64,000 nt of DNA from Marsupella aquatica (taxonomy: Eukaryota; Plantae; Marchantiophyta), in assembly GCA_973895155.1 (NCBI GenBank), contig OZ316891.1, positions 16,457,651-16,521,650 on the forward strand, written 5' to 3'. Position numbers and translations under genes: made by a program. Shown here piece by piece: positions 1 to 26,858 of this stretch; position 1 is the first letter of the stretch, and each line of letters starts with the position of its first letter. The notes below the pieces were generated by a model that worked only from the letters and a program-made list of their open reading frames with translations, was not told the origin of the DNA and did no database searches.

Positions 1-356
1 CGTCGGTATCTACTCTCTCCCCGAGTGCTTGCCTAAGCAGCTGACAGTAGTTGGCCTCCCGTAGTCGTCTGCCTAGTTCGTGCTCGCAAATGAGCCACCA
101 TCTCTTGCAAGCGCTCCTTACCCCTCTCCTCTGCCGGTCCTTCTTCCCGTTGATCCTTCCTAGCCGCCGACGCTTAACGCGCCCTAACCCTAATCGGGTT
201 TTCACCCTTAGCCTTACCTCCGGCCTCGGCCCGGGTTCCATGGTTGCCCCTAATTGTTTATATTTTCCTTGTTTTGTCCCTATACTAAGGTGTTCCTAGG
301 GTGCCTTCCTGCTTTACCCACTTAACCGGCCGAGTGATTCCTGTCTAGGCATCACA
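1..356 (-). mobile_element. 5' end of giant LTR (family X), inserted into another family-X LTR; continues left of window
   Basis: Ends ...CTGTCTAGGCATCACA, the reverse complement of the TGTGATGCCTAG start of the other copies; near-identical to 31688-32043. The host copy resumes at 357 (CATTCCAACCAGGG, cf. 40637). Confidence 0.9.
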
Positions 357-3207: not shown

Positions 3208-4123
3208 CGGTGCAAGAGCGTCGTTCCTTTTAGGAAGGGCGGACGTGGAGGTAGGAGGCGTGAGTGGGCAGGGCGGGCGCTGATCTCCAAGTTTAGGATT
3301 AGGATCAGGACCAGGAGCGGCCCTGACACTTAGCTTAGTGGGATTGCGGTTCCACTGGTAGGAGCAACACTTGTGCTCCTGCCTTGCTGTACATAGGTAG
3401 TTTCGGGTAGGTAGGTTACTGTTAGGGAGATTAGGCTTACGCTGCAAAGAATTAGGCGGATCCACTACCAGGATAAGTACCTGGGCAGCGGGGAGCTCCG
3501 GGCCTCTTCTTTAGCAAGTTTTTAGTTTGCACCAGCCGGGCTGGGATCAAGTAGTAAGAGAAGCTCTCGGTTAGTCATACCGTGACCTTGTGTATATTCA
3601 TGTTTCCTCATGCCTAAGAGCTGAATAGAGTTGGCCTCACGGCTTAGTTCGCAGAGCTTGTGTATGAGATGTACTGTTTGTATGGCAAGTGCATGGTATG
3701 ACTCAGTCAGAAGGAGTCATTTTGCTATTTGTGTGTCGCATTAACTTGTGTGAAGAGTGCCCACATCAACCAGAAGGAAGGAAAGTAAACAAGGGAGTGA
3801 GAGTTGGATGTGTCGAGCTGAGAGAGGTCTTAGCGGCTTAACCAAGCCTATTGGGGATCATTCCGGCGGCGGAATCCAAACATACCTAACCAGAAGGAGA
3901 GGAAGACAAGGGAAGGCCTAGATTAGGCCGGCTACGTATCTCATGACCCGATGAAGGATCTGTCCAGTATATGTGTGTAAAAGGCTAATAGTAATAAGAG
4001 GAGGAGGTTAGCAGCGTCCCATGCCGCTAAGCCGCGGAAACGGCCTCGCCAAGCGCGAAACCTACGGGAATCGGCTTGAGCTGGGGGGTTTCTTGGGTTT
4101 AGGGAGCCATGGGACGCACCACA
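357..4123 (+). mobile_element. Giant LTR family X, 3' ~80% (5' part displaced by nested insertion)
   Basis: Colinear with 40637-44442; ends GGGAGCCATGGGACGCACCACA at 4123. Confidence 0.92.
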
Positions 4124-5954: not shown

Positions 5955-6015
5955 GGGGAGGTAATCCATCAGTTATCAGTCACTGATATCAGTGACCCCC
6001 CTTTTTTTTCTCTAA

Positions 6016-6650
6016 TCTGGGAGAGCTCTCCAAGATGGCGACAGTTTTTTTTGGCAATCTCAGAGAGCTCTCCGAGATCCCTACCGTTTTTTTGGCCGGA
6101 GAGCTCTCCAAGATGGCAACAATTGTTTTTGGCAATCTTGGAGAGGCTCTCTGAGATCCCTACCATTTTTATGGCAATCTTGGAGAGGCTCTCTGAGATC
6201 CCAACACACTTCTAGGAGTATGTTGGAGACATGGTAGTTTGTTTGCTCACCATGTGAGAGAGCCTCTCCGATGTACCAAGTCACTCCGTTGCCATCTCGG
6301 AGAGTCTCTCCGAGATACCAAGTCTTTTTGTTGACCATCTTGGAGAGCCTCTCCGAGATACCAAGTCTTCTCGTTGACCATCTCGGAGAGCCTCTCCGAG
6401 ATACCAAGTCTTTTTGTTGACCATCTCGGAGAGCCTCTCCGAGATACCAAGTCTTTTTGTTGACCATCTCGGAGAGCCTCTCCGAGATACCAAGTCTTTT
6501 TGTTGACCATCTCAAAGAGCCTCTCTGAGATACCAAGTCTTTTTGTTGACCATCTCGGAGAGCCTCTCCGAGATACCAAGTCACTTTGCAAACCATCTTC
6601 GACTTTCCCATTCCATTTCTAAGACCATCTCAAAGAGCCTCTCCGAGATA
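6016..6650. repeat. Palindrome array 1 (left subterminal), 43-bp unit
   Basis: ATCTCGGAGAGCCTCTCCGAGAT + ACCAAGTCTTTTTGTTGACC repeated at 43-bp spacing (6296, 6339, ...); more diverged copies at 6016-6200. Confidence 0.95.
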
Positions 6651-6772
6651 CAAATACAAAAAACTTGCAAGTGATACACATCACATTCACTTTTCATATA
6701 TATGGTAATGTGTACACAGGAACACTTCATCATTGCTACCTTCTCTAAAGCTAAACCCTATTGGCCACTACT

Positions 6773-7887
6773 TTATTCTGTTATCTGATATGTGCACAGG
6801 TCATAAATAATCTTCTTTTGCAAGTTTCCTACCTGGCTGCCATCAAAATCCATAGGAGCATCTCGACTTATGCGCTCTACATAGTTAAGGATAAATACCC
6901 CACAATTTACACTATCTTCTTGTGATGGAAGGCCTGACACTAAAGTTCTAGGCCAGTTGTATGCATCTGGTGAGGGCATGCCACTTTGACTTGCTTCATC
7001 CTCGATATACCTTGTTAGAGTATACATGAGATACTCATTTCGAGCCTCCCAAAAGTTTCCTGATTTCTCCCAAAGCGAATCTAGGAACAACACCTCTTTT
7101 CCAGTTAAATCAATCACTGCCAACACCCAATGCTCCCTATTTGCCTGGTGGATAGGGACCAATATCCTGTCATAATCAAATATGTTTTCTGTTTTGGTCC
7201 ATCGAGCAACATTGGCAAAACAGTATACGGGCGTTGAGAGCAACGTGTAGAATGCTGTGATGAAAAATGCACACTTTGGATAGCCTCTTGATCTCCCCCT
7301 AGACTGCAACAAGGCCAAGTATGCATCGATGATATCTGAATGTAGCCATTGAGCTGCTATTCTTCCTTCAGACAAGCATCTCATTGACGCCCTAGTCAAC
7401 TTGTAATCTACAAAGTTGAATAGTACTTCCTCGTCTGGGAGCTCTATGGATAGACATGTGGATACTATGTCGGAAAAGTCTTGAGAGCAGACTACTTCAG
7501 CAAATAACCGAGGTATCCGAGTATTCCCACCACGTGCTACATAGGATTGAACAACATGGCATTAGGCATCATCTTCATCTAAGCTATAGGTCACAAAAGA
7601 AGGGTGAGCTATCTTGTCACTATCACTGCTGACACTCTCACTTTCATTGTAGTCTACCTCTACTGCTCTATCATCTACAAATCTAGATTTTTGCCTCTTT
7701 GTGTACTTCTCAGCTACACCCTTGAGCCGTTTGAAGGGGCGTGAATCAACAATCCCTTCTGCGTAAGTTGGAAGGCAAAATCTTTCTGGAGAGAAAGTTT
7801 TCAATGCTTCCTCCCATGCTTCACGGACTTTGTCCTTGTCTGATGTGTGCCATTGTTCGGACTCGATGTTCCTGTAGTGAACTGCCT
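6773..7887 (-). pseudogene. Ulp1/SENP-family SUMO protease (peptidase C48) exon
   Basis: WLHSDIIDAY, RILVPIHQANREHWVLAVID...FLDSL, SQEDSVNCGVF (His-Asp-Gln-Cys residues present); in frame with ORF 7562-7804 across one TAA. Confidence 0.9.
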
Positions 7888-8404
7888 ATTGGTTAAGTAG
7901 ACAGTTTAAGGTAATACCATAATAATGTGGAACTTCACATTTTTATTGATCCTCACCATGGCACAATGTAAATTGCAAACTACCTACAACAAATGGGTTC
8001 TTGGATTCAACGTTTACTCACAATCCTGAGCATTCCCACCCTTGCCTTTTGCGGCATCCTCCTCTGATACAGACTCAAGGACCAGCTTCTTCCGCCCTTT
8101 AGGCTTCTTAGTCTCCTTGGCCTCCTCCTTCTTACTCTCCTCGCCCTCCGCCTTGGTCTGATTGCCTTGCTGCATTGAAAGGAGTTTTGACACCACTAAA
8201 GCTGCTGACTCACCAAAGTAGTCATGCGCTTCCATCCCAAATACTAGTCGCCCACAATTATTGGCAGCTTTGTAGATAGCACCAAAGTGGACATTCCAAG
8301 AAAATATGATATCGCCGAGACTGGTGATGTGCTCTATGATGCATTGCAAGGTTGCAAGCGATAAGGTTCCGGCCAATTCGTCTCTCACTGCATCATCTTC
8401 CTTT

Positions 8405-9113
8405 CCTGGGAAAATAGTTTTTATAATAAAAAGGTGAGACCGCAAAAACCCCACGGCCGGGGGGAAGCAAACAGCCCCTTAGATATATCAGCACAACTCC
8501 CACAGGGAGGCCAGCAGGCATAAGCAAAGGCCAGAATCACAATAAACATAAAAAAGGGGAGACTGAAGCTATAGGCCCAAAACGTGAGTGACCCACACAT
8601 CATGTCAACTTGTAGAGCCCTAGAGCCGATAAGCAAGGTAACCCATTCACCCTTTTCCAATAGCTATCACTCCTAGACCAGCAACGCAGCCACTGAGGTG
8701 ACTCTGCCAGTACTCCTAGCAAACCAGTGTCGTTGTTTTAAAGCGATGAGATCCCTAGCCTTAGCCAGTCTGATGCGCCGCCCACCAATGGGGAGGCACC
8801 AGCCCGCAGCTCGCAAGTGCGTCTCAGTTTCCGAGAGGACCAGCCCAAAATCAAATACTCTGATCTGCTTTTTCTCAAAAATCTGCTCATTTCGTCCCAT
8901 CCATAGAGCCCACAGTATTTGATACTGCAGGAAAAAGCAGGTAGATTGAGTGTGTGTTCTGGAGTCTGTAGCAACAAGGAGTTCCAGGCTACCCCAACCC
9001 CTGCCAAACAGTTGTCTCAAGGAGCTGGACTCTCCAATTCCCCAACAGCGCATGGCGTGGGCACAGCCAAAGAAGAGGTGGGGGATGCTTTCAATTCTCC
9101 CAGGGCAAACATG
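8405..9113 (-). mobile_element. 5'-truncated L1 LINE with 15-bp TSD
   Basis: TSD GCATCATCTTCCTTT at 8390-8404 and 9114-9128; encodes HLFFGCAHAMRCW...QILWALWMGRNEQIF (end of ORF2, zf-RVT region), resembling 51338-51802. Confidence 0.9.
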
Positions 9114-9329
9114 GCATCATCTTCCTTTGTAAAATTGGATAGAGCATTGCTCTTTGCTGGGCACAAGTCACCAGTAATTGGCTTCATATGTACCTTTGGG
9201 AGGGTCACCTCTGTACCCTTTATGGTGAATATATCTAAATGCAGATATTGAGCCTGTCACATCATGCAAAATAGATTTGCACTTGTTAGCAACACTAATT
9301 GCTAAACTTATCCGACATCGGTCCTACCT

Positions 9330-9810
9330 ATCTCAGAGAGGCTCTCCGAGATCCATGCTACCTATCTCAAAGAGGCTCTCCGAGATGGATCCTACCTATC
9401 TCAAAGAGGCTCTCCGAGATCCATGCTACCTATCTCAGAGAGGCTCTCCGAGATGGATCCTACCTATCTCAGAGAGGCTCTCCGAGATGGATCCTACCTA
9501 TCTCAAAGAGGCTCTCCGAGATCCATGCTACCTATCTCAGAGAGGCTCTCCAAGATGGATCCTACCTATCTCAAAGAGGCTCTCCAAGATGGATCCTACC
9601 TATCTCAGAGAGGCTCTCCGAGATCCATGCTACCTATCTTAGAGAGGCTCTCCGAGATTGATCCTACCTATCTTGGAGAGCCTCTCCGAGATTGATCCTA
9701 CCTATCTCGGAGAGCCTCTCCAAGATCAATGTTACCGATATGGGAGAGGGTGTCCGAGATTGTAATTGCGGACACATTTTTCAACTATCTCGGAGAGCCT
9801 CTCCGAGATG
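9330..9810. repeat. Palindrome array 2 (intronic), 34-bp unit
   Basis: Palindrome plus an 11-bp spacer alternating CCATGCTACCT / GGATCCTACCT; about 12 units inside intron ~9254-9846. Confidence 0.95.
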
Positions 9811-12227
9811 ACTTCTATTGAAATGCCAAAATTGAAGTGAACTTACAGCTTTTTTGCTTGATGCCATGTAGCAAGGTGTGTCATTCCAAATGGTGAATGA
9901 GTCAATGTGATCCAACTTCTCAGCCCGGTCAATGTGAAGGTACTCAAAGATTGAGCTTGTGTGGGCAAATGAACCACTATGCACGATGCACAGGAAACCG
10001 TCATTTGTGAGTAGAGAGTCTGCCACTGTCGTCGCCACTTCTAGGTCACTGAGCCAAAATCTATTCCACACTGGAACATTATTTTCAGCTTGCGCTATGC
10101 GATAATCTGTCCCTAACTGAACAAAGATCATATCACAACCATGGCCCTTAGGTACACCATCAACTATCCAGCCTTGTTTTCGCAAGCCAGCCAACTTCAA
10201 TTTCTTACACCAATCCCGGAATTCCCTCATGAATGGAGGGAGAGACAACTTTCCCGTGGTTGGCTGGTATTTGTCCTTCAGTCAAGAAGAACACTCTAGT
10301 AAGGTCATATGCTCTTTTGCATGGCAAAATTGCAGGGCAGATGTAATAGCATGAGAGGGCCGAGGTACTCCAAGAATTTTGCAAAGATCATCCTCCGGAA
10401 TTTCTGGGGCTTCTGTTGAAACTGGCTTCTTTGTGGGTTTGTCTATCCTCTTCTCGGCTTTCTTCTTTGGCCGACTGGTTGGCTTACCAGAGATTTGTGG
10501 TTTGCTTGGGGTCCCAATCGGGGTCCCGCTTGGGGTTGAAAGGTCAGGCTCCTCCTCCTCCTCATGGCCCTCTGCATTGTCCCCGGTGGCCATCTCATCC
10601 TCCTCTCCATTGGCCCCACTTGCCGCTTTCTCATCCTCCTCTCAATTGTCCCCACTCACCGCTTTCTCATCCTCCTCTCCATTGTCCCCGGTCTTTCTTG
10701 GCTCCATCTTCTCATCCATCGAACGACGTTTGCTTGAGGTAGACCCTGGGGTTCCAAACTTTTCTTTACTTTTTTCTGCAGAACAAAGTAAGGAGTTTAG
10801 TATACATTTTACAATGATACTATCTCGGAGAGGCTCTCAAACATAGGTCAGATGTACAATGCAAGCTAGGGTGTAAACCTTACCAGGAGTGCCTTGTTCT
10901 GAGGTGGTGTCTTCTGATTCCTTTTCTTTCTTCCCCCGAACCTTCTTCCCATCATACTCTGGCTCTCCAAGAGGCAAAATGGCCTCCAAGTCCAATGCAG
11001 CCTTTGTCGACTGCTCAAGATCTGCCAACTTTGAAGGCGCAAAAAGGTTGTCTGGTAGTTTCCCCTCCTTTAGGAGGTTGGTAGCTTCCTTCTCTTTGGC
11101 CGTAATGAACTCATTCCAATCATTGAACTCCATGAACCATGGACAATTTTGTCTCTCCCAGTCTGAAAAGACTCTTGCTGCTAGCTTCAGCCCGTCTGTT
11201 GGATACATTGATAGCGGGCCTTTCTCCGTCATCCATGCAGTCAAAGCACTTGGTAACTCTTTGAAAGTAGAGGCTCCAATGCTCTCCTAATGAAGTAAAT
11301 ATCTGACCACACACCTCTTTGCACGCTTCCTCCACACATCTTTGCTTTGCTTTGCTGGATTCCACATCTTCTTGCCCTCCTCATAGGACCGAGTCTGTAC
11401 AAATTGCTTGTACATCTTGTTGTGAAACTCAACAAACTTGTCTTTGCTTCCATTGAAGTTCTGCCACTCACCAGAATCATATGCACTCTTGGCAAACTCT
11501 GACATGATCAAACTGCCAACATGGGCAATGTAACACCACATTGCACACTAGCAATCAAGCTCTCACTGCTGAATCACCATATACATCTGGATGGTGGTGT
11601 TGCTTCTTCTCCTCCGCGGTTGAGAAATGAACACGGAGTAACTTATTTCGACACTCAGTAGGCATCACCGCACTTGCAAACAATTTAACTCAATCCAACC
11701 CCACTTGCACTTGTGGCCAATCTTTCTGTTTACTCTGCAACTGGTGCAGCTCCTCGGCAATCTCCAAAAATTCCTCTCCATTTGCTGGATTGACAATCTG
11801 AGCAAACTTCTGCATTTTTCCCTCCCAAGACCTACAGGCTTCACTCGTCATGAGTGCGGTTTCCTTTTGGAACTTATCCAAACTCCAGGCATGGCCAATT
11901 GCAGCATCGACTGCCATCTCCTTCGCAAGACGAATCCTCCCGTCTTCAATATTATTCCACGACATGATGTACACAACAGCATCCTTTGTCATGCACTTGC
12001 TATACCATGTCTTTCCATGCCCATGGCTTCTTGCTGCTAAGAATCTACCATTACCATCCGGATGAAGCAATGTCTGATACTCCTACAAAGGTGTCATCAA
12101 CAACTTCTTCACCCTGTCTGCATCGGTCAACCAAGATGTCTGCACAACGTTTGCGCTTATCCTGCGTAAAAGAAGCAACAAATGTTGGCGTCAAAGGCTA
12201 TGTACAAGCAAATTAGATCTCTGTCAG

Positions 12228-12500
12228 ATGCTCTCCGAGAAGGCATGGATATCTCGGAGAGGCTCTCCGAGAAGGCATGGATATCTCAGAGAGGCTCTCC
12301 GAGAAGGCATCGCTCTTCAAGAAGGCATGGATATCTCGGAGAGGCTCTCTGAGAAGGCATGGATATCTTGGAGAGGCTCTCCGAGAAGGCATCGCTCTTC
12401 AAGAAGGCATGGATATCTCGGAGAGCCTCTCTAAGATAGCATTTTGAGAGCCAAACATTGTATGTGTGTATGTATCTATCTCAAAGAGCCTCTCCAAGAT
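12228..12500. repeat. Palindrome array 3 (intronic), 32-bp unit
   Basis: ATCTCGGAGAGGCTCTCCGAGAAGGCATGGAT repeats (12251, 12283, ...) inside intron ~12162-12572. Confidence 0.93.
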
Positions 12501-13269
12501 AGGATTGCCTATGTGGGTGCAAAGGAACAACAAATGCAAGAACAACCAAAAACCAAGGGGGCGATCACTTACGCATTGAGGCCATGCATTGCCTGCTCAA
12601 TCTTCCTGAATCCTTGTTTTCCAGTTTGTAGAAGAGAGAATCTCACGCAAGGGTGGTAATTCTGCTCGTTAGGATACTCTTCAGCCACTTGTCTCCATGC
12701 ATTCAGGCGATGATTTCCATCAAACACCCAAAACATCTTACCCTTCAAAATGTGAAACTCCTCGTACTCATCACACTCCATCTCAAATTTTGCGTTAGCT
12801 TGTTCCCATAGAGGGTCCCAATCTGCGGAAAATTCAGACATAGAGTGGGTGGCGTTATGCGCATTGGTCTCTGATACGTGGAATTCCAAAAACTTGTCCA
12901 CATACCCATTCTTCACAAAGTCCTTCTTCATCTTGAGAATGGAACTCTGTTGGAGAGTCCGAACTGCCTCCATTGTCATCAAACGACATAGTGGAATCCG
13001 AGGTGGCTCTCTGGGCTTCCCGCTTGGTTAGCTCCAAATGAAACCAAGTACTCCCCAACAATCCCTTCGAATGCACCTTTGTTCAAACGTTCAGCAGACA
13101 CATTTTCAAAGTTCAGAACCTTTGGCTCCAGCTTCATTGTGTGAGTTTCCCGACCACTGGCGGTGCTCTCTGCTGTCTTTGATCTGATCTGCTGACCAGA
13201 CAATGAAGGAGAGGGAGTGGGTTGCTTCCTCTTCCCTATCATTTTCAAACCTCACCAACTACTGAATTG

Positions 13270-13740
13270 CATGAGCACAACTTGCACAACACTTGCACCG
13301 CCCACAGCTCAGTTGCAGCAAGCTCAATCACTGGCAATGCATGGCACAACACACAACACATTCGCACCGCTTGCACAACACTCGCACTCGCACCGCCATA
13401 GGTCACCGCACTCAATCGCACCGCTTCCAGCACTCGCACTCACAATCGCACCGCTTCCAGCACTCGTACCACCACAACTCAGTCGCAACAAGCTCAATCA
13501 CTAGCAGTGGCACAACACACAACACAATCGCACCACTTTCACAGCACTCGCACTCGCACCGCCACAGGTCACCGCACTCAATCGCACCGCTTCCACCACT
13601 CGCACTCACAATCACACCGCTTCCAGCACTCGCACCACCACAACTTAGTCGCAGCAAGCTCAATCACTGGCAGTGGCACAACACACAACACAATTGCACC
13701 GCTTCCAGCACTCGCACCACCACAACTCAGTCGCAGCAAA
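13270..13740. repeat. AC-rich compound tandem repeat (~170-bp higher-order unit) upstream of the ParB-like gene
   Basis: Recurrent CACTCGCAC, AATCGCACCGCTTCCAG and AAGCTCAATCACTGGCA blocks, about 2.5 copies. Confidence 0.85.
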
Positions 13741-13832
13741 CTCCCTATCCCATAGGGTTTTGTGGGTTTTACTGGAAAATAAAAATAAAAATAAAAATAT
13801 TGAGCCTAATCCTTGCTAAACACCTGAAGATG

Positions 13833-14600
13833 GCATCTCGGAGAGCCTCTCCAACATCCCTAAACCCTTCATACCTACGCAAGATGGTATCTTGGAGAGC
13901 CTCTCCAACATGGGTCAAGGCTACATACCTCCGCAAGATGGCATCTTGGAGAGCCTCTCCAAGATGAAACTTGGTGAGATCCGGTGCAAGATCCCGTGCA
14001 AGATCTAATCTCAGAGAGGCTCTCCAAGATGGGTCGAGGCTATATACCTCCGCAAGATGGCATCTTGGAGAGCCTCTCCAAGATGAAACTTGGTGATATC
14101 CGGTGCAAGATCTAATCTCAGAGAGCCTCTCCAAGATGGGCCGAGGCTACATACCTCCGCAAGATGGCATCTCAGAGAGCCTCTCCAAGATGAAACTTGG
14201 TGAGATCCGGTGCAAGATCTAATCTCGGAGAGCCTCTCTAACATGGGTCAAGGGTACATACCTGCGCAAGATGGCATGTCGGAGAGCCTCTCCAAGATGA
14301 AACTTGGTGAGATCCGGTGCAAGATCTAATCTTGGAGAGCCTCTCCAAGATGGGTCGAGGCTACATACCTCCGCAAGATGGCATCTCGGAGAGCCTCTCC
14401 AAGATGAAACTTGGTGAGATCCGGTGCAAGATCTAATCTCGGAGAGCCTCTCTAACATGGGTCGAGGGTTCATACCTTCGCAAGATGGCATGTCGGAGAG
14501 CCTCTCCAAGATGAAACTTGGTGAGATCCGGTGCAAGATCAATCTCAGAGAGCCTCACTAACATGGGTTGAGGCTTCCAGATGGCATCTGAGAGAGCCTA
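13833..14600. repeat. Palindrome array 4 (intergenic), 107-bp dimer unit
   Basis: Palindrome alternating with spacers GGGTCGAGGCTACATACCTCCGCAAGATGGC and GAAACTTGGTGAGATCCGGTGCAAGATCTA; period 107 (14222, 14329). Confidence 0.95.
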
Positions 14601-14659
14601 ATGGACACCCTAAACTTGCTGTCAAAGGTTCTTGGATGTTCAACGAGGGAAGAATATTT

Positions 14660-15120
14660 GTAACAATTTTTACGCTTGGTCTGGGCGATAAGGTACTCTG
14701 ACAAAACAATCTTGACATATTCAACAAAGAAAGAAGCGAGTCTAACAATTTTTACACTCTGTCTAGGCGGTAAGGTACTCTGACAAAACAATCTTGACAT
14801 TCAACAAAGAAAGAAGCGAGTGTAACAGTTTTTACGCTCGGTCTGGGCAATAAGGTACTTTGACAAAACAATCTTGACATATTCAACAAAGAAAGAAGCG
14901 AGTGTAACAGTTTTTACGCTCGGTCTGGGCGATAAGGTACTCTGACAAAACAATCTTGACATATTCAACAAAGAAAGAAGTGAGTGTAATAGTTTTTACG
15001 CTCTATCTGGGCGGTAAGGTACTCTGACAAAACAATCGTCACATATTCAGAAAGAAAGAAGCGACTCTAATAGTTTTTACGCTTTGTCTGGGCGATAAGG
15101 TACTCTGAGAAAACAAAGTC
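14660..15120. repeat. ~82-bp tandem repeat, about 6 copies, between the divergent MULE genes
   Basis: TTTTTACGCTCGGTCTGGGCGATAAGGTACTCTGACAAAACAATCTTGACATATTCAACAAAGAAAGAAGCGAG repeated. Confidence 0.92.
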
Positions 15121-15234: not shown

Positions 15235-18200
15235 TGTGATGCCTAGCCAGGAATCATTGGGCTAGTTTAAGTGGAAAAGAGAAGTGTACCCTAGAAACAC
15301 CTTAGTATAGTTACAAAAATAAGGAAAATATAAACAATTAAGGGTGACTCTGGAACCCGAGCTGAGGCCGGAAGTAAGGACGCCAGGGGAGAGAACACGA
15401 TTAGGGTTAGGGCACGCTAAGTGCCGGCGGCTAGGGGTAACCAACGGGAGGGAGAACCAGAGGAGGAGAGGGGTAAGGACCGCTCGCGAGGAATAGTGGC
15501 TCATTTGCAAGCACGAACTGGGCAGGCGACTACGGGCGGCCAACTACTGTCAACTGCTTAGGCAAGCGCTTAGGGTGGGAACAGATACCGACTATCAACT
15601 CGAGAAGGGTATGAGCAACATCAATCAAGCGGCACATTTTTGGGGATGCCTGTTCGAACGGGCAACTGAGTACATTGGGACTTATGAGGACGAAGAATCG
15701 AAGAGAGCAGCTCAAGAACGACAGGAGCTCGCCCGATTGTGGGAGCTACAGAAAGCTGCCTTCTTAGGAGGAGAACTCATCAAGGCTGAATTCCTGTGGA
15801 CACCTACTGGCAACGAGCTAGACGACCTGCTATTTTGCGAAGATAGAGTCGTCGGCATCCGAGAAGCCATCAAACGCTGCAACGACATACACTGGGAGTT
15901 GAAGGGTAGCACGGAGGGGTGGACAAAGGCAACCGTGCTAGGAGAGACATCCACGGGAGCCGAGATGAAGAGGAAGGGGAACAACAATGAAGAGGCCACC
16001 CCAGCAAAAAGAACGAGGTCGACGGCACCAAAGAAGCCAGCAGAACAGCAGAGCAGGAGGCAGAGAGAAGCCGAGGAGGAGGAGGTCAACCCCATCAATG
16101 CCATTCCAACAAACGATGACACCTGGAAAGGCTGGGCGGCGACCCTACCAGAGGAAGTGCAATTACACTTTGCACGGGAGGAGGATGCATGCTTTACAGC
16201 TATGCAGACCAAGAAATACCAAGGCTTCATGGCCGGATCCGGCTTGGAAGCCTTCGTAAGATTACCACGGCTGAAGCCGGAGGTGCCGGACTCAGACTTG
16301 TTAAAATCCGTGGGATCATGGGAGTCCAAGACCAATTCCACAAGGGTGTATGGGAAGGATTTCTATCTCACTCCCCGGGTGATTGCTGAAGTGTTTGGCT
16401 TGCCGATGGGTAATAAGACCAAGGTTGATACCAGGAAGACCTTACCTGACAAGGAGTTTCGGTCGTTCCTAGGACCATCAACAAAGAATGGCTTCTTCCG
16501 GAACACCTGCACCAACCCGCACATTGGAGAGATGATCGATTTCTTGCGGGTAACCATGCACTGTAACTTGCCGAGGGCAGAGATCGGCAAGGCTCAGGTC
16601 TACCTGGAAAAAAGGCCAGACCGGGCCCAAGCCGGGATTACAACGGGTACCTCCTCAACCAACTGAAGAAGATCTTGAAGGAGGAACAGCAGGTGATCGG
16701 CGTGGGAAGCGTGTCCCGGCTTGGCTATCACATGCCGCTGTTGTGCCGGTATGCCAGAAGTCAAATCTTTGCCCCAGTACTTCCCCTATCGGCAAGAGCA
16801 CCGGAGGAGGTCCCGGAGCAGAGGCCGGCAACGGAGAAACCCAACCCGCCCGACAGTCCTACAATCGAGCAAGTGTTTAGGCCAAGGACGGAGGACTTGC
16901 CGATGCAGCAACCAGGCATGCAGAATCTGCTGAAATTGCTGGAGAAGGAAAAGAGAACGGCAACGGCAACGGCAACGGCACCAATGCAGGACACTGCTCC
17001 AGAGGTGGGCCTAAGCCGGCTTACAAGGGAAAACCCCTTTACTGGGGTCAAGGAGAGAAGGAGGCCGGAACACGAGCCGGGAGTCCGGATGTATGTCGGA
17101 GCCTCAAGTCCCGAAGCCGAGGAGAAGCAGGCCGTAGCTCCCGGCCACGACAAGGAGAACAAGAGATCAACATGGAAGCCGAAGGAGGAACCAAGACCGG
17201 TGAGAGGTGAAGTCGTGTTCACGACAAAACCAGGAGAACAGTGGGAGAAGCCGGTAGTCCAAGCCGAGGAGGAGGCGGTAGAGGACTACAGCAATGATGA
17301 CTCCGGCTACGGGTCGGATCATCATGTTCCAGGAGTAAGGACCTGTGGCCGGTTCATCCCCACGCTCCCAAGAGTAGTTCGAGGAGACCCGAGCCAGCAG
17401 AGCAGCCCCGAGTCTCCCCCACCAGATGTCGCTCCCCCGAGCTTTGACGGCATAAAACAAACGGCGCAGGAATTTCAGGAGCGAATCAGGGAGGAAGAGG
17501 AGGCAGCCCTGGCTAGGGAAAAGGATTTACCAGGAGGAGAATGGCCAGAGGACATCAGGCGGCTTGCAGAAAAACGAAGCATCCCTCCAGCCACAATAGA
17601 AAAGATCCGCAAGGCGGCTTGGGAGCACAGGCCGCGGTGGATGATGCCGATGACTTCTACTTCCTCCACCTATGCTAAAAATAGAGCCATGGAGTACGGG
17701 GAAATGTGTGGAGAGCAAGCGCTCAGCATCTTTGGGGAAGAGTTGGAGCAAGGACCCTTTTTTCAGAGGGAGATGTTGGAGAAGTGCCAATTAGAAGAAG
17801 CGGTGGCTTTGGAAAGAAGCAAGAAGGACGAGGTCATCCGTCGGCTCAGGGCAAGGGAAGCCGAAATCAAAGACCTGAGGGCGGCCAAGAAAGCCCAAGA
17901 TGAGCTACGGATTAAGCGGCATGAGCTAAATATCATGCAGGGCCAATTGGATACCGCATAGTCTGATAATCGGATTATCGAGAATAAATTGACTCGAACC
18001 CAAGAAGAGTTGGCCGATGCGATCAAGGAGCGAGAGAAGTGGAAGCGAGAGCTGAGGGATGCAAAGGAGGCCCACATAACAGCCAACAACCGGGCCAGGG
18101 CGGAGACCCAAAGAAGGGAAAGGGCATTGAAGGGGGAGCTCGAGGTTATCCGCGGAGCCCTTGAGAAGAAGGAGGCCGAGTTAGGGAAATCCTATCAAGG

Positions 18201-19978
18201 GATTATTGCGCTGCAGCAAGAGCTTGCATCCCTGACGGCCAGCTTCAAGGCCGACCTGCGTGAGAAGGACAATATGCTCGATCAGACTTATGCCAAGATG
18301 AACCAGATGGAGTCTGTCATCATTGCAGAGCTTGACAAGGAGTTAAGAGCAACCCGGGAGGAGAGAGCTACGTTTAAACAGGAATTGGAGGAAGCCCAAA
18401 AGGAGCTGGAGGAGGCGCGCAAGGACCTGGACGAAGTGCAGGAAGAGTTGGAGGAAAGCACGCGGAAGCTAGAGAACTTACAACGACGAGCCGACAACCA
18501 AACGGAGCGGCTGAAGAAACAAGCCGCAGTATTTAAGTGCTTGGCTTCATCAGGGCCAACTCAAATTGAGGCCACTAAGTTACCAGGAGTGGTACTGGCC
18601 GAAGGACAAGCCGCGCCATTTGCACTAGTGCCGGAAGTAAGTGGGAAGAGGAAGGGGCCAGCTGCCGAACCAGAAAAGAAGAAGAAGTGGAAACCTTCAG
18701 GGTCAGGGAGTAATACGGCTCCACAGGCCATGGTGACCAAGGAGGTAAACCCAGCACCGACCTCGGGCAGGGTTACGGCAGAGGATCCAACTACCCTAGA
18801 AGAAGGGGATGACAAAGCCGAGGCCAGGATACTCGGTAATGAAGCCGAGGTACCCAATCCGCCATTTGAGTGTGCAGGGGAGGCCGTAGCCGTGGCTGAG
18901 GCCGTAGCCAAGGCTGATGTTGAAGCCGATGCCGTTGCCGGGGGCGGACCCAATCAGGCCGATGGAGAGTTGACTCAGTCAAGGGCAGGTAATCTGTCAG
19001 AGAACAAACCTACGGCAATGGCTGAGGTGGAAGCGTTGGGGGCGTCCACTGAGGAACAGACACCGCTGCCATGACGATGGTGGAGGGCTGCTCCTTTCAA
19101 GGAGGGTGGACGTGGAGGGAGGAGGCGTGAGTGGGCAGGGCGGGCTCAAATCTCTAAGTTTAGGATTAGGATCAGGACCAGGAGGCAGCCCTGACACTTA
19201 GCTTAGTAGGATTGCGGTTCCACTGGTAAGAGCAACACTTGTACTCCTGCCTTGCTGTACATAGGTAGATTCAGTTAGGTAGATTAGGCTTACGCTGCAA
19301 GGAATTAGGCGGATCCACTACCAGGATAAGTACCTGGGCAGCGGGGAGCTCAGGGCCTCTTCTTTAGCAAGTTTTTAGTTGCACCAGCCGGGCTGGGATC
19401 AAGTAGTAAGAGAAGCTCTCGGTTAGTCATACAGTGACCCTTGTGTATATTCATGTTTCCTCATGCCTAAGAGCTAAATAGAGTTGGCCTCACGGCTTAG
19501 TTCGCAGAGCTTGTGTATGAGATGTACTGTTTGTATGGCAAGTGCATGGTATGACTCAGTCAGAAGGAGTCATTTTGCTATTTGTGTGTCGCATTAACTT
19601 GTGTGAAGAGTGCCCACATCAACTAATAGAGGAAGGAAAGTAAGCAAGGGAGTGAGAGTTGGATGTGTCGAGCTGAGAGAGGTCTTAGCGGCTTAACCAA
19701 GCCTATTGGGGATCATTCCGGCGGCGGAATCCAAATATACCTAACAAGATGGAGGGGAAGACAAGGGAAGGCCTAGATTAGGCTGGCTACGTATCTCATG
19801 ATCCAATGAAGGATCTGTCCAATATATGCGTGTAAAATGTTAATAGTAGTAGTAGAAGGAGGTTAGTAGCGTCCCATGGCACTAAGCCGCGGAAACGGCC
19901 TCGCCAAGCACGAAACCCGCGGGAATCGGCTTGTGAAGGGGGGTTTCTGGGGTTTAGGGAGCCATGGGACGCACCACA
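15235..19978 (+). mobile_element. Giant LTR family X, full length (~4.74 kb)
   Basis: TGTGATGCCTAG...GGACGCACCACA; ORF pieces 15575-16666, 16675-17961, 17989-19074. Confidence 0.93.
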
Positions 19979-22350
19979 GCTTGGGAACAAAGGCTGCGGT
20001 GGATGATGCCGATGACTTCTACTTCCTCCACCTATGCTAAAAATAGAGCCATGGAGTACGGGGAGATGTGTGGAGAGCAAGCGCTCAGCATCTTTGGGGA
20101 GGAGTTGGAGCAAGGACCCTTTTTTCATAGGGAGATGTTGGAGAAGCGCCAATTAGAAGAAGCGGTGGCTTTGGAAAGAAGCAAGAAGGACGAGGTCATC
20201 CGTCGGCTTAGGGCAAGGGAAGCCAAAATCAAAGACCTGAGGGCGGCCAAGAAAGCCCAAGATGAGCTACGGATTAAGCGGCATGAGCTAAATATCATGC
20301 AGGGCCAATTGGATACCGCATAGTCTGATAATCGGATTATCGAGAATAAACTGACTCGAACCCAAGGAGAGTTGGCCGATGCAATCAAGGAGCAGGAGAA
20401 GTGGAAGCGAGAGCTGAGGGATGCAGAGGAGGCCCACATAACAGCCAACAACCGGGCCATGGCGGAGACCCAGAGAAGGGAAAGGGCGTTGAAGGGGGAG
20501 CTCGAGGATATCCGCGGAGCCCTTGAGCAGAAGGAGGCTGAGTTAGGGAAATCCTATCAAGGGATTATTGCGCTGCAGCAGGAGCTTGCGTCCCTGAAGG
20601 CCAGCTTCAAGGCCGACCTACAAGAGAAGGATGACCAGCTTGACTAGACTTATGCCAAGATGAATAAAATGGAGTCTGAGGTCGTAACGGAGCTCGACAA
20701 AGAGCTAAGAGCAACCCAGGAGGAGAGGGCTACCTTCAAGAAGGAATTGGAGGAAGCCCACAGGGAGCTGGAGGAAGCCCAGAAGGAGCTGGAGGAGGCG
20801 TGCAAGGACCTGGACGAAGTGCAGGAAGAGTTGGAGGAAAGCACGCAGAAGCTGGAAAACTTACAATGGCGAGCCGACAACCAAACGGAGCGACTGAAGA
20901 AACAAGTCGCAGTATTTAAGTGCTTGGCTTCTTCCAGCCCAACTCCAATTGGGGCAACCAAGTTACCAGGAGTGGTACTGGCCGAAGGACAAGCCGCGCC
21001 ACTTGCACCAGTGCCGGAGGTAAGTGGGAAGGGGAAGGGGCCAGCTGCCGAACCAGAAAAGAAGAAGAAGCGAAAACCTTTTGGGTCAAGGAGTAATACG
21101 GCTCCACAGGCCATGGTGACCAAGGAGGTAAACCCAGCACCGACCTCAGGCAGGGTCACAGTAGAGGATCCAACTACCCTAGAAGGAGGGGAGGGCAAAC
21201 CCGAGGCCGGGATACTCGGTAATGAAGCCGAGGTACCGAAACCACCACTTGAGTGTGCAGGGGAGGCCGTAGCCGAGGCTGATGCCAAAGCCGATGCCGA
21301 TGCCGAAGCCGAGGGTGGACCCAGTCAGGCCGATGGAGAGTTGACTCAGTCTAGGGCAGGTAATCTGTCAGAGAACGAACCTACGGCAGTGGCTGAGGAG
21401 GAAGCGTTGGGGGCGTCCATTGAGGAACAGACACCGCTGCCATGATGGTGGTGGAGGGCCGCTCCTTTCAAGGAGGGCGGACGTGGAGGGAGGAGGCGTG
21501 AGTGGGCAGGGCAGGCTCAAATCTCTAAGTTTAGGATTAGGATCAGGACTAGGAGGCGGCCCTGACACTTAGCTTAGTGGGATTGTGGTTCTACTGGTAA
21601 GAACAACACTTGTACTTCTGCCTCGCTGTACATAGGTAGATTCAGTTAGGTAGATTAGGCTTACGCTGCAAGGAATTAGGTGGATCCACTACCAGGATAA
21701 GTACCTGGGCAGCGGGGAGCTCAGGGCCTCTTCTTTAGCAAGTTTTTAGTTGCACCAGCCGGGCTGGGATCAAGTAGTAAGAGAAGCTCTCGGTTAGTCA
21801 TACAGTGACCCTTGTGTATATTCATGTTTCCTCATGCCTAAGAGCTGAATAGAGTTGGCCTCACGGCTTAGTTCGCAGAGCTTGTGTATGAGATATACTG
21901 TTTGTATGGCAAGTGCATGGTATGACTCAGTCAGAAGGAGTCATTTTGCTATTTGTGTGTCGCATTAACTTGTGTGAAGAGTGCCCACATCAACTAATAG
22001 ATGAAGGAAAGTAAGCAAGGGAGTGAGAGTTGGATGTGTCGAGCTGAGAGAGGTCTTAGCGGCTTAACCAAGCCTGTTGGGGATCATTCCGGCGGCGGAA
22101 TCCAAACATACCTAACCAGAAGGAGGGGAAGACAAGGGAAGGCCTAGATTAGGCCGGCTACGTATCTCATGACCCGATGAAGGATCTGTCTAGTATATGT
22201 GTGTAAAATGTTAATAGTAGTAGTAGAAAGAAGTTAGCAGCGTCCCATGCCGCTAAGCCGCGAAAACGGCCTCGCCAAGCGCGAAACCTGCGGGAATCGG
22301 CTTGTGCAGGGGGGGTTTCTTGGGTTTAGGGAGCCATGGGACGCACCACA
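19979..22350 (+). mobile_element. 3' half of another family-X LTR, in tandem with the previous copy
   Basis: Begins mid-ORF (GCTTGGGAACAAAGG, cf. 17617) and ends GCACCACA; the composite 15235-22350 is flanked by GAGGT/GAGGC. Confidence 0.92.
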
Positions 22351-22421: not shown

Positions 22422-25400
22422 ATGGCTGGCCGTGTGAGGATCACGTTTCCAGACAATGGAGACGTTGTTGTGCTAGTGACTGATGGTGTTGTTCGACATA
22501 CACCAGACAACAAATTAGCTCGTCGGTTTGATGTTGAGATTGGGGAGTGGGCACTCTTTGAGGCCGGCGATGTCTTACCATTGATTGAGGCAGACTCAGA
22601 GGAGAGTGGAGAGGAAAGGATATGGCATCTGAAAAGTGAAGTTTCGTACCTCCTTCAGCAGAGGGTGTACTCTGTTCCTCTTACTGAAGTTGGTTTGCAA
22701 TCTCAAACTGGAGAGAAGATTTCAGAGTGGCCGGTAGAGGTAGAGCAAGCCAAATTTCTTGAAAGTGTTGTTGTTGCAATGCTGAAAGGGAAAGGCACTT
22801 CGCGATGTGTAAAGGCTGCCCATTCCATTCTCAGAGTGCATTATCCACAACGAGTCATGACTCTGCCATAATGGTCTGATGGGGATTGCATTTTTGAGCT
22901 CCCCCCATTCACAGGTATCCACACAAAGGGTGCCTTCTTCTTGGGTATGGAGCGGAGAAATGACTGCTACTTGTGGAGCAAGCTCATCGAGACAGGGGCC
23001 CAAATTGGACCCAACCTAAACAAGGGAGGCTTCAAGTATAAGATTGGGAATGTGAGATGTCTGGGCTCTTTGCAATGTCCACATTCAGATTCTCCGGCTT
23101 TTACAAGTAAGAATGAGCGCAATTGCACAGAATGGCAGCGAGATAGGGGTGGGAGAAATGAGTTTCCATTTCTTGTTGGGCAACTAGTTCCAGCAGAGAG
23201 TGTGATTTGCGCCTTTTGTGATCGGCCTCCTAAGTGTATAGCCAAGTGTCCAACCAAAATGTTCTACATCACTCCAACCTCTCATGACCATTACATTTAC
23301 AAGCACATGACACATGTTGCTATGCATGTTGGGAGTCACTCACATCCGGCCAAATTTGTTCTCAAGAAAGATCGAAAAGCGTTCTTACATAAGTTGATGG
23401 AAGAGAAATTGAAGAAGAATCCTCATGCAATGCCGTCTGTGATCAAGAGTGACACAATTAAAGCTCTAAGGGATATTTTTGATGACAAGGTTGCTGGGAT
23501 TGTCACATTTGAGGAAGCACGGGATCTGAATGAAACATTGGCGATCCTATCAAATTGATCAGTTGTAAGATCTATGATACAGAGCATACGCAAGTATACC
23601 CATGCCTCATCCGACCTCCAAGTCATCCTTGATCTTAAAAAAAAACAGTGTTTTCATTTGTCCAGAGCACTCTATTTCCAAACCAGAAGCTAGATACAGA
23701 TGAGCGCCCACACATTTTCAAGATGACTGTAAAGAGTCTAGGGTCTGGAATCGATCTCATTCAAAGGATGTAGCCTGGTAGAGATCTACAAGACTCATGG
23801 ATGATGTTTGATGTCATGCATTGGATGACTGAGAAGCAATGGTGCACAATGTCAGCTCATGTATACGACCACCTATACAAAGGTCTTTGCACAATTTTTG
23901 TATGCGAGCTAGTTTCGGAAGATACTGCTGCACTACAAACTGCATGGAAGGCCATGAAGCAAGTGTCTAAGGCAAATGGGCTTGACAATGTTACGTTTTA
24001 TGGGTTCATTGCCGATAATGCTACAGCTAGGTGGAATGCAGTTTGAAACACATTCTGGGATGGAAGAGTTAATTCTCAAAAGGAGCGATCTGATGCATTT
24101 CACTGGGCGCAATCAGTGGAGAAGATGACAAAGAAATGCATTCTTCCTGGCAAAGCAGTTGAGCATAAGGAGCTTCTGGATTCATTGAGGGACGCTGCCA
24201 ATGTGGTTCTTGCATTTCGGACTTTTGAGAAGATGAAGGATTGGTGGAAAAATGGGAATGCAATCAAAGGAAAAACCAAGTCAATGGAGACATGGCTTTT
24301 GTGGTGGATTGTGTGGTTCTCCTAGTGGGGAAACTTTATTTGCTGGTAAGTCTATGAATTCTTAGTAATATTCCATCTTGGAGAGGCTCTCCAAGATGAT
24401 TAATCTTGGACATGTCAGAGAGCTTATTTGAGAACAACAAATTGGTCTTCTCGGAGAGCCTCTCCGAGATGGAACATATGGGTAATCTTCGAGATGGAAG
24501 ACGGGTCATCTCAGAGATCCTCTCCGAGATGGAAGAGGTGGGTCATCTTGGAGAGTCTCTCCAAGATGGAAGAGGTGGGTCATCTCGGAGAGGCTCTTCA
24601 AGATGAAAGAGGTGGGTCATCTCGGAGAGCCTCTCCAAGATGGAAGAGGTGGGTCATCTTGGAGAGCCTCTCCGAGAGGAACATATGGGTAATCTTGGAG
24701 AGCCTCTCCGAGATGAAAGAGGTGGGTCATCTCGGAGAGCCTCTCCAAGATGGAAGAGGTGGGTCATCTTGGAGAGCCTCTCCCAGATGAAACAAATGGG
24801 CGACTAGGAAGACATGTTAGAGAGCAAACTTTTGTTTTGTAAATATATGGTTCATCTTAGAGAGGCTCTCCGAGATGGAACACTGGTCATCTTGGAGAGC
24901 CTCTCTAGGATGGACCCCGTTGGACATGTTGCAGATGTACAAGATGACTCATGTACATTTTTTGGTAATACTCTTTTCTTTGATTTTTGTGTAGGACATG
25001 GACAGAACTAAGTCTGCATTGATGCTGAACCATAGCGGGGCAGAATCCATGCATGCCGCGATGCGCGGATGGTCTTCCACAACAAAGATTGGGATAGTGC
25101 AATCTTGTATAACAGATGCAACCCGTGCATCAAATCAAATTGGTGCCCTTGTGAACTACACGACCCACAAGAGGAAGGGCCGTGGCCCAAGCCTCTTTGA
25201 ACTTCGTCTCTGAGATGCCAGGATGGTTGGGAATGTTAAGAGTTTCTTCCCAAAGTTAAATACGACAATGACTCAACCGGAGATGGTTGAATATGCTTTG
25301 GGGGACCCAATTCTTGGTGACTATGAAACTCAACGAATGTCGGCGCGAGGCAAGGTTCCAGCTAATGCTATTGCAGTAGAAGACTCCCACCGCAATGATG

Positions 25401-26639
25401 TCATTCTAGTAACGCAACCTAAGAAGCGAAAGTTCAAGGGGATTTTAAGCCAAGATGCAAACTTGAAAAGTACCATTCCTGACGTGGTCGACTTGTCAAC
25501 CTCGTTAGACTCTTCTCCAGGCTCTGGTGGATCAGATGTGGTGATTTTGGAGAGCCCAGTACAGCGTGAGACAAGGTCGGCACGTGTCCCTCCACCATCA
25601 ACCCCAAGGAGGTCAACTCGAGTGCCTCCTCCGCCCCCAACAAGGGCAACACGTGTTCCACCTCCTCCAACCCCAACAAGGTCAATACCAAGGTCACCTC
25701 GTGTTTGTCCACCAAGGCGGTTTGCTGAACCTTTGCATAATGCTGGCAAATAGAGACAAGTTCAAGAGAGCAATGTGATGCCAGGAATGTTGTTTTTGTC
25801 TTGCATCAGTCGCCATGGAAGTGGGCCCGCTTGTAGAGGTGCCTTCAAAGGCACAGAACGTCCAACATGCTGTCTATACATCAAGGAGGTGGGGTTTTGT
25901 CATGCAATGTTGGGTGTGGTAGGATTGTGCTTATTGGCTGGGAGCAGTTACAAGGATCCAAACATTGCACAAAAGTTTTGGTTTTGCCCAAACAATGAGT
26001 GTTGCCAGAAATCCTCCATGGCATATGTTACTGGGCGGCTGCCCCCACTACCGGAGAAGGTCCCAGTTGCTCGATGAACCTATCTAACACAAGAGGAAGT
26101 TGATTTTCTCCATGTCAATGGATTGAATGTGGTACAGACCATCATTCCTGGTGATTCAATGGTGAGTCCTGGCAATGTAATTGTGGACTTGAATAGTTAC
26201 CCTAAGCAGATGGATCCATTGAAGCCTGATGTCAGGCTGAGCCGGCGCAATGGCCGCTTACGGCGAAGGAGATCCGTTGTGACGGCAGATGCAAAGAAAC
26301 GTATTGAGAGTGCCAAATACGTATTGAGAGTTGATGAGGTTCACTTCCATGACTCGAATTGAAAAAGAGAATGCAACTGGCTTACGAGTGGTATTTTTCA
26401 ACACTCATCGTGACCGCAATTCAGCCCATTGTCTACAGATATGTGTGTTCCCAACTTGCTCTTGTCAAGATTTCATCATGAGAGATACTGGAAGATACTT
26501 CTTTCCTTGCAAACACTTGTATTGGTGCTATAAAAACATTTGTGGACAAGATCTAGAGAGCAACCAAGAGATCCACCAACCAATCTTGACACTTAGCGAG
26601 GTTCGTAAATTGGTGTCAAATGTAGCAGGCTCAGGGTGA
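22422..26639 (+). pseudogene. MULE-type DDE transposase with N-terminal GCM-like Zn domain and C-terminal SWIM finger
   Basis: RCLGSLQC...CAFC...C...HVGSHSHP (GCM-like); MMFDVMH...FYGFIADNATARWNAV...DAFHWAQSV (MULE DDE core); PTCSCQDF...PCKHLYW (SWIM). Intron ~24346-24994; several stops and frameshifts. Confidence 0.82.
24374..24910. repeat. Palindrome array 5 (transposase intron), 37-bp unit
   Basis: Palindrome + GGAAGAGGTGGGTC (24545, 24582, ...), between GTAAGT donor ~24346 and TGTAG acceptor ~24994. Confidence 0.95.
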
Positions 26640-26737
26640 ATGCATGTCAAAGATGTTTCAGGTTTAGTGGGTATAACGATCTACTTTTGTATCCTTTCAT
26701 AATAATAAATGTTCAAGATTTCAAATGATGTTGATCC

Positions 26738-26858
26738 CATCTCGAAGACGCTCTCCGAGATTCCAACCTAGTGTGGATCCCATCTTGGAGAGGCTCTCCG
26801 CGATTCCAAGTGATGTTGATCCCATCTCGGAGGCTCTCTGAGATTCCAAGTGATGTTG
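26738..26858. repeat. Palindrome array 6 (right subterminal, truncated)
   Basis: Three diverged palindromes with spacer TCCAAGTGATGTTGATCCC. Confidence 0.85.

Follow-up and report, generated by a model that had tools for sequence, protein, structure and literature searches.

ParB-type accessory genes on algal transposons were reported in 2025 (PMC12477816; 10.1101/2025.02.11.637652), and ParB-HTH methylase fusions had been noted earlier in chlorophytes and chytrids (Iyer 2016). One of the algal genes resides on Sola1-1_Ec32 of the brown alga Ectocarpus. As described, it lies on the strand opposite the transposase and encodes a fusion protein of about 1100-1200 aa that joins a ParB-like part to an N4/N6 methylase; binding to, and modification of, its own element were proposed for it (PMC12477816); the term 'palindrom' is absent from the main text on this element. 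The other, PAG3, occurs on Plavaka (EnSpm/CACTA) elements of red algae, has an N-terminal ParB-like domain and is flanked by tandem inverted-repeat arrays. Self-binding was proposed for PAG3, and the section on it mentions no pairing of each PAG3 family with its own motif (10.1101/2025.02.11.637652).

In Arabidopsis, VANC/KIU are anti-silencing accessory genes on Mutator-like VANDAL elements. Their family-specific target motifs are amplified in tandem repeats within introns, intergenic and terminal regions, and Ulp1 is found on some members (PMC5735166, PMC13317346). How one transposon protein lifts silencing over kilobases is described as still open (PMC5735166). The bacterial CTP-dependent clamps ParB, Noc, KorB and VirB combine an N-domain bearing a GxxR box and a distal Asn with a following helical domain and palindromic sites (PMC12704722, PMC10653881); VirB of Shigella employs loading and spreading against silencing (PMC10653881). 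In the literature examined, NTP-gated ParB clamps are demonstrated in prokaryotes only, and the identity of the nucleotide is predicted neither by sequence nor by AlphaFold3 (PMC12704722). Phages possess fusions of ParB_N to N6_N4_Mtase (PMC12704722). Fungal Starships carry DUF3723 proteins as cargo of unexplained function (10.1101/2021.12.13.472469, 10.1101/2025.02.28.640899), and neither of the main texts contains the term 'ParB'.

Here we analysed a stretch of 64,000 nucleotides from the liverwort Marsupella aquatica (the window), in which a first-pass annotation had proposed a ParB/Srx-like domain in an intron-containing gene of a transposable element. The gene resembles that of Sola1-1_Ec32 in domain fusion, size and orientation; compared by description, it differs in its non-Sola transposase and liverwort host, an eroded methylase motif and a probable Ulp1 part. 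With PAG3 it shares the predicted ParB-like N-terminal domain, the neighbouring arrays and the structural match 7BNR, which is the best one for PAG3 (10.1101/2025.02.11.637652) and a top one for our modelled Riccia homolog P0155, whereas by description PAG3 bears a 2OG-oxygenase and has its methylase on a separate gene. The marks of the algal accessory genes, namely a ParB-like N-terminus, divergence from the transposase and nearby inverted-repeat arrays, were all found. VANC/KIU share the motif layout, the occasional Ulp1 and, with the window element being a likely Mutator type, the transposon setting, but their motifs measure 8-9 bp and are described neither as palindromic nor as going with a ParB fold (PMC5735166, PMC13317346). 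Pfam scans of the middle region of our protein gave no significant family, and no sequence link to VANC was noticed. Unlike the bacterial clamps, the window family has an insertion of about 45 residues (W-W-F), DGNHR in place of GERR, introns and additional domains. In contrast to canonical ParABS, no ParA family match was found among the element ORFs scanned against Pfam, and instead of the 16-bp parS there are 21-23-bp palindromes unrelated in sequence to the parS consensus. The phage fusions have both domains in identical order but lack the long helical region and linker that separate them in the window family.

Results

Gene structure and state of the window copy

The peptides cited in the first-pass annotation (PPRIPLCRLMTMEAVR, KKDFVKNGY, FWVFDGNHRLNAW and AMHGLN) are all encoded by a minus-strand frame that runs from 13027 to 12572. 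The ATG at 13242 belongs to a different frame. As contigs from all four public runs have one additional base behind 13029 that joins both frames, the window copy has suffered a 1-bp deletion at this position. The minus-strand stretch 13242-12573 represents the first exon of a genuine gene, is frameshifted once in the window copy, and is closed by a GTAAGT donor at 12573. In the same contigs, the codon at 10282 is an intact Trp codon and two more bases are present at 11543; in the window, exon 2 is interrupted by stops and lacks 2 bp near 11543. In one public run, 1340 contigs match the gene at 80-100% identity. The window gene is a decayed member of a multi-copy gene, and this copy is dead.

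All introns of the gene are GT-AG, with the final donor at 8021, and the Riccia protein P0153 aligns to exons 1-4 in sequence order (Table 1). Among 41 rows, of which 13 did not extend to the terminal Asn, 28 have a match that ends on the Asn codon, and 26 of these show the GT donor two bases further on. This conservation marks the family as eukaryotic with an old common intron and bears out the spliceosomal introns of the first-pass annotation. Bacterial contamination is ruled out by the GT-AG introns, Ulp1, retroelements and a PX/Rubicon-domain gene within the window.

Table 1 Coordinates of the ParB-like gene, the transposase and the palindrome arrays in the window.
Feature	Position	Strand	Remarks
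Exon 1: ATG, disordered N-terminus and, at about 13003-12575, predicted ParB/Srx-fold domain that contains VR, GY, DGNHR and the terminal Asn	12573..13242	-	1-bp deletion near 13029
Intron 1: GT-AG, phase 2	12162..12572	-	position conserved in family; 7 palindrome sites
Exon 2: helical region, then helical bundle	10884..12161	-	counterpart of helical region in homolog model aligns to ParB/Noc central DNA-binding domain
Lone palindrome in intron 2	10823..10843		
Exon 3: linker of low complexity, followed by the first half of a beta-class N6/N4 methyltransferase-like domain	9847..10775	-	motif IV position VQLG
Palindrome array in intron 3	9311..9808		14 sites; 34-bp unit
Exon 4, part one: methyltransferase-like domain continued	9114..9253	-	weak blastp to Riccia homologs, E 0.014
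LINE-like fragment inserted into exon 4	8405..9113	-	15-bp target-site duplication at 9114-9128 / 8390-8404; zf-RVT E 0.05
Exon 4, part two: SAM-binding half of methyltransferase-like domain	8022..8389	-	motif I degenerate
Exon 5 (predicted): C-terminal tail common with Riccia homologs, then Ulp1/C48 protease	6770..7881	-	PF02902 E 2.4e-25
Left-end palindrome array	6014..6648		10 sites; 42-43-bp tandem units
Upstream palindrome array between divergent genes	13827..14575		13 sites; 54/107-bp units
Nested retrotransposon-like insertion	15235..22350		TG...CA ends; 5-bp duplication (one mismatch); splits element; palindrome-free
Decayed transposase: zinc-finger-like N-terminus, DDE-like core, SWIM finger	22422..26639	+	one intron, 24347-24996
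Transposase-intron palindrome array	24376..24905		12 sites; 37-bp unit
Right-end palindrome array	26716..26858		2 sites at <=4 mismatches; 43-bp unit; severed by other inserted DNA

Protein family and predicted fold

A phmmer search over 1.84 billion representatives yielded 211 homolog clusters at E<=0.001, 80 of them at E<=1e-10, which argues that the motifs of exon 1 are not due to chance. From the 150 clusters listed, 30 were looked up for their organism: seven belong to Riccia sorocarpa, nine to Adiantum, and 14 had no organism, so that all 16 named homologs are of liverwort or fern origin. A word-index protein search gave no match (one pass was restricted to 2086-5000 aa). Throughout the family IPLCR, VR, F-x-GY, W-x-W-x-F, DGNHR and the terminal Asn are conserved. 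In the family profile of 156-157 rows, the box residues are kept at 94% (G), 99% (N), 94% (H) and 85% (R), and the distal Asn in all 98 rows that extend that far, in line with the layout of DGxHR box and distal Asn that had been proposed. The GxxR of Box II is found in DGNHR; VR, F-x-GY and the terminal Asn stand, as judged by eye, at the places expected for Box I (C motif) and Box III. Matches to DGQHR domains at the DGNHR stretch were weak (E 0.001-0.011), and membership in DndB/DGQHR is ruled out by scores of 15-19 bits vs a cut-off of 58.85.

Single-sequence folding of the window domain gave a pLDDT of 32.5. The fold comparison was made with a model of the homolog P0155 (31% identity to the window protein over the domain), built with a 125-row alignment, in which pLDDT is mostly >90 over the domain and 80-97 across most of the next helical region. 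In a second look with VIA-align at 227 chains, the top nine rows were all ParB, Noc or KorB (Z 7.7-8.6), among them 7bm8 (rmsd 2.2, 97 aligned residues) at a Z of 8.6, close to the level this tool calls common, and 6sdk (Z 8.3). Over N-domain and DNA-binding domain together (model residues 25-392, rmsd 6.3-6.6), 193 of 194 residues of M. xanthus ParB and 199 of 199 of Noc were aligned. Sulfiredoxins scored 4.4-5.8 among the same chains; a sulfiredoxin is ruled out by the lower Z, the absence of a conserved Cys in the box and the long additional domains. When the search was widened to 48,161 chains, ParB was outranked by helical bundles, and among the 50 rows listed only KorB (Z 7.6) and PadC (Z 7.1) were confined to the N-domain. 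Foldseek found no match at E<=0.001 in PDB and BFVD; ParB, Noc and Srx rows recur without reaching that threshold.

Sequence comparison reached less far. Pfam ParBc (PF02195), the family to which the first-pass annotation had pointed, matches none of 109 family members at E<=0.1, and the ParB label therefore rests on fold and motif. No PDB sequence matched the family profile, and a PHROG ParB-like family matched at E 0.088. Neither the N-domain nor the central domain reached significance when profiles were compared by hhalign to those of 13 canonical ParBs, so that the match of the latter rests on the 6.5-Å alignment; below significance, hhalign pairs DGNHR with AGERR. As far as the homolog model goes, the N-domain almost certainly adopts the ParB/Srx fold that had been suggested from the single sequence, and a helix-turn-helix DNA-binding domain behind it is plausible.

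An eroded methyltransferase-like domain and a probable Ulp1 tail

The fusion to an amino-methyltransferase-like domain, also part of the earlier reading, is supported by the homologs, which match PF01555 at E 9e-6 to 5e-5 (23.7-26.2 bits vs a cut-off of 26.7). Of 26 relatives, four have a precomputed PF01555 annotation; the window's own pieces give no match to this family. The methylase part of the homologs also matches phage methylase families. Sequence of at least 2.7 kb downstream was available for 20 locus groups, 11 of which have the first half of the domain there, and in the largest metagenome clade the domain was detected only with a better-seeded profile. The canonical beta-class motif IV reads (D/N/S)PP(Y/F/W). 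This PP-aromatic motif is absent in every member examined: relatives have DLPSG, DMPTG, DVPFG, DIPEN or DVPSN, that is D-x-P-x-[G/N], and the window subfamily has VQLG in nearly all contigs.

These sequences suggest that the domain is likely non-catalytic, most clearly so in the window subfamily. An active methyltransferase, guided by the ParB-like part and writing protective 4mC or 6mA on the element, would agree with the PF01555 matches and with the Riccia members, which retain D-x-P and the motif I GDIVIDFAGGWG; Marchantia has a 4mC writer, too. The same role has been proposed for the Ectocarpus protein (PMC12477816). Given the missing canonical motif in all members examined and VQLG in the window subfamily, we nevertheless accord this activity little credence.

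Behind a single TAA at 7564-7562, an Ulp1 region follows in frame, which retains the His, Asp, Gln and Cys of the Ulp1/C48 type. The start of exon 5 is weakly similar to the tails of Riccia homologs (E 0.005-0.08), and the protease is probably fused to the ParB-like/methylase protein. Ulp1 was found in none of 40 related locus groups. One Adiantum member (P0075) has a C-terminal NIF/FCP1 phosphatase annotation after methylase motif I, which may be a real fusion or an artefact of the gene model.

The gene lies head-to-head with a transposase

When the nested insertion 15235-22350 is removed, the ParB-like gene stands head-to-head with a decayed transposase, whose SWIM finger scores E 0.00086 (19.2 bits vs a cut-off of 19.6). 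The transposase contains the pattern FD...ADN...FHW...ESMH, which agrees with MULE motifs; searches of Pfam, NCBIfam and PDB gave no MULE match. Judging by these motifs, the element is likely a Mutator-type DNA transposon. Hallmarks of MULEs are terminal inverted repeats and a 9-bp target-site duplication, neither of which was found at this element, with its right end severed by other inserted DNA. The arrangement recurs among relatives: 80 metagenome loci fell into 40 groups, and the same transposase is present upstream on the opposite strand in eight of the 13 groups with at least 8.7 kb of upstream sequence. The residence on a transposon that had been proposed is thereby borne out at this locus and at related ones; most of the loci examined are decayed.

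Other repeats were seen within and at the border of the element. CA-rich tandem repeats of 82/166 bp lie immediately 5' of the ATG (13275-13743), possibly as leader or promoter, and an 82-bp tandem array of 5.6 copies without the palindrome described below is positioned at 14636-15116, with the upstream palindrome array on one side and the nested insertion on the other. A different perfect palindrome of 18 bp (5979-5996) is situated where the left end of the element meets a broken Ty3-like pol fragment.

Palindrome arrays are confined to the element

The arrays of the element have in common a 21-bp palindrome, TCTCGGAGAG[G/C]CTCTCCGAGA, with 56 sites at <=3 mismatches in the window compared to none in 100 shuffles. 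At <=4 mismatches 59 sites occur: the left end has 10, the introns of the ParB-like gene have 22, the region upstream of this gene has 13, the transposase intron 12 and the right end two. No site falls into the 7.9 kb of coding blocks or into the 50 kb outside the element. Since the tandem units differ in length and filler, the palindrome is what the arrays share. C>T or G>A changes within the CGG/CCG cores account for 79 of its 102 substitutions, a trace to be expected from host methylation, which is the inferred cause.

If the gene were a mere passenger and the palindromes neutral products of tandem duplication, a dead window copy and mostly decayed relatives would be expected companions. 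Yet catalytic-type residues, intron position and head-to-head layout are preserved across relatives of 30% identity, and a single motif recurs within unrelated tandem units, which makes this explanation hardly credible.

The distribution of the sites also fits a ParB-like protein that binds them for autoregulation in the manner of KorB, or to serve as a scaffold, compacting the element and bridging its ends for transposition, with no part in anti-silencing. Both ends of the element and the stretch that separates the divergent genes have arrays, KorB is among the top structural matches, and KorB is described to control plasmid genes at long range (PMC12704722). However, 34 of the 59 sites are intronic, the layout described for VANC targets (PMC5735166), and the methylase-like domain and Ulp1 suggest a function at chromatin, so that we regard this role as rather unlikely.

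Several related elements have palindromes of their own. In an unbiased scan, in which many related contigs were short or decayed, another palindrome was found in at least four copies, above the shuffle maxima, in seven of the 40 groups, and in none of seven control stretches of the window. A targeted count of motifs taken from such scans against elements was nearly diagonal (L003, 7 sites; L004, 15; L008, 10; L016, L029 and L045, 5-6 each; L058, 6; L060, 5), with one AT-rich motif being unspecific and one consensus scoring 0. In L001, the nearest relative, intron 1 contains a 23-bp palindrome whose outer 7 bp are identical to those of the window palindrome. Sister proteins tend to have common motifs, as do the window protein and L001 or L016 and L029; as an exception, L069 and L080 share a motif though they are not sisters. 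No palindrome locus was found in viral contigs.

Because the transposase is co-inherited, this co-variation of sites and proteins does not tell which of the two is the binder. Palindromes that serve as transposase sites, leaving the ParB-like protein another, non-specific role, would agree with the zinc-finger-like N-terminus of the transposase and with sites at both ends, and transposases alone can activate cognate copies sequence-specifically (10.64898/2026.08.24.746577). Against this stand the perfect dyads of 20-23 bp, which suit a two-fold symmetric binder such as ParB, and the relatives L001, L008, L029 and L045, whose sites cluster around the ParB gene and inside its introns. The ParB-like PAG3 has inverted-repeat arrays as well, on an unrelated transposase family (10.1101/2025.02.11.637652). 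We thus consider binding by the transposase improbable, and that the ParB-like protein binds the palindromes of its element, by analogy to the bacterial proteins, appears probable.

Two further arrays were seen at related loci. In L063 (686-1282), copies of the motif stand 42 bp apart and point in alternating directions, forming a longer inverted-repeat unit upstream of a ParB-like exon. In L021 (19002-20100), 16 imperfect 14-bp palindromes with about 72-bp spacing lie 8.6 kb downstream of the ParB-like exon and may belong to another element.

Discussion

Taken as a whole, our reading, to which we assign a probability of about 50%, is that the gene encodes an accessory transposon protein which would act as a ParB-like dimer on the palindromes of its own element, close as a nucleotide clamp, spread and counter silencing. 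The predicted dimer would recognise the 21-bp dyad and, by analogy to ParB, KorB and VirB, would then close on nucleotide and spread along the element; for such nucleotide gating, we see the odds as even. The methylase-like domain may serve as a non-catalytic binder of DNA or methyl-cytosine, and Ulp1 as a spliced-on deSUMOylase. The benefit to the element, in analogy to VANC/KIU, would lie in countering host silencing, which as the main role of the protein has slightly less than an even chance. A wider view is doubtful: a nuclear ParB/parS-type system in land-plant transposons, in which a nucleotide-gated sliding clamp would load at family-specific palindromes, spread across the entire element and bring along a dead methylase as reader and a deSUMOylase that strip silencing, with an orthogonal protein-palindrome pair in each family, as one branch of a pan-eukaryotic class together with PAG3 and Starship DUF3723.

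As to its origin, an old transfer from prokaryotes to eukaryotes had been suggested, for which we found no direct trace: the searches brought up no relative of the ParB part from prokaryotes or phages. Among prokaryote genomes, 17 pattern matches contained no relative; viral contigs gave no locus for the protein, and tblastn matches to phages were limited to methylase motif I at E 0.03 or worse. Prokaryotic ancestry is likely, and the immediate source may be another eukaryotic element, since the nearest language-model clusters are fungal DUF3723 and similar genes occur in algal transposons. For residues 20-395 of P0155, the nearest named ESM Atlas clusters are ascomycete DUF3723 at 0.95-0.97 (best 0.97, 194/256 features). 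PF12520 is present on 22-78% of the members of the nearest clusters, a likeness in language-model features that involves no alignment; Pfam PF12520 has no match in the window-gene family. This suggests, as a lead only, that DUF3723 proteins are ParB-like.

As ParB-type genes on algal transposons were reported in 2025, we regard the family as a land-plant variant rather than a new class. We found no description of this land-plant family in the literature, although homologs from land plants may already be among the taxa tabulated with the Bostrychia preprint. In a 2025 survey of ParB folds (PMC12704722), the terms 'plant' and 'transpos' do not occur in the accessible text, nor any of six plant names in six supplements. 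New are the element-specific pairing with palindromes, the eroded methylase and the probable Ulp1 tail. The element-specific arrays, the match through the ParB DNA-binding domain and the eroded methylase motif go beyond the first-pass annotation, which names palindrome DNA only in connection with an assay.

A sliding clamp that loads at palindromes would concretely explain de-silencing over kilobases. The algal class was proposed in a few sentences, and the family in the window adds land plants with workable genetics, liverwort and ferns, as well as several natural protein-palindrome pairs suited to swap experiments. It further offers a clue to what the DUF3723 proteins of Starships do and, if the proposed mechanism holds, would provide orthogonal, spreading DNA-targeting modules already suited to plant chromatin.

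Apart from the element, the window contains five related copies of a 4.6-kb repeat bounded by TG...CA (1-4123, 15235-22350, 27409-32043, 35097-36739 and 39770-44445), which has coiled-coil ORFs, gave no significant Pfam match in the three ORFs scanned and is perhaps non-autonomous. A host-like gene with PX and Rubicon-homology domains is located at 56985-60683 on the minus strand.
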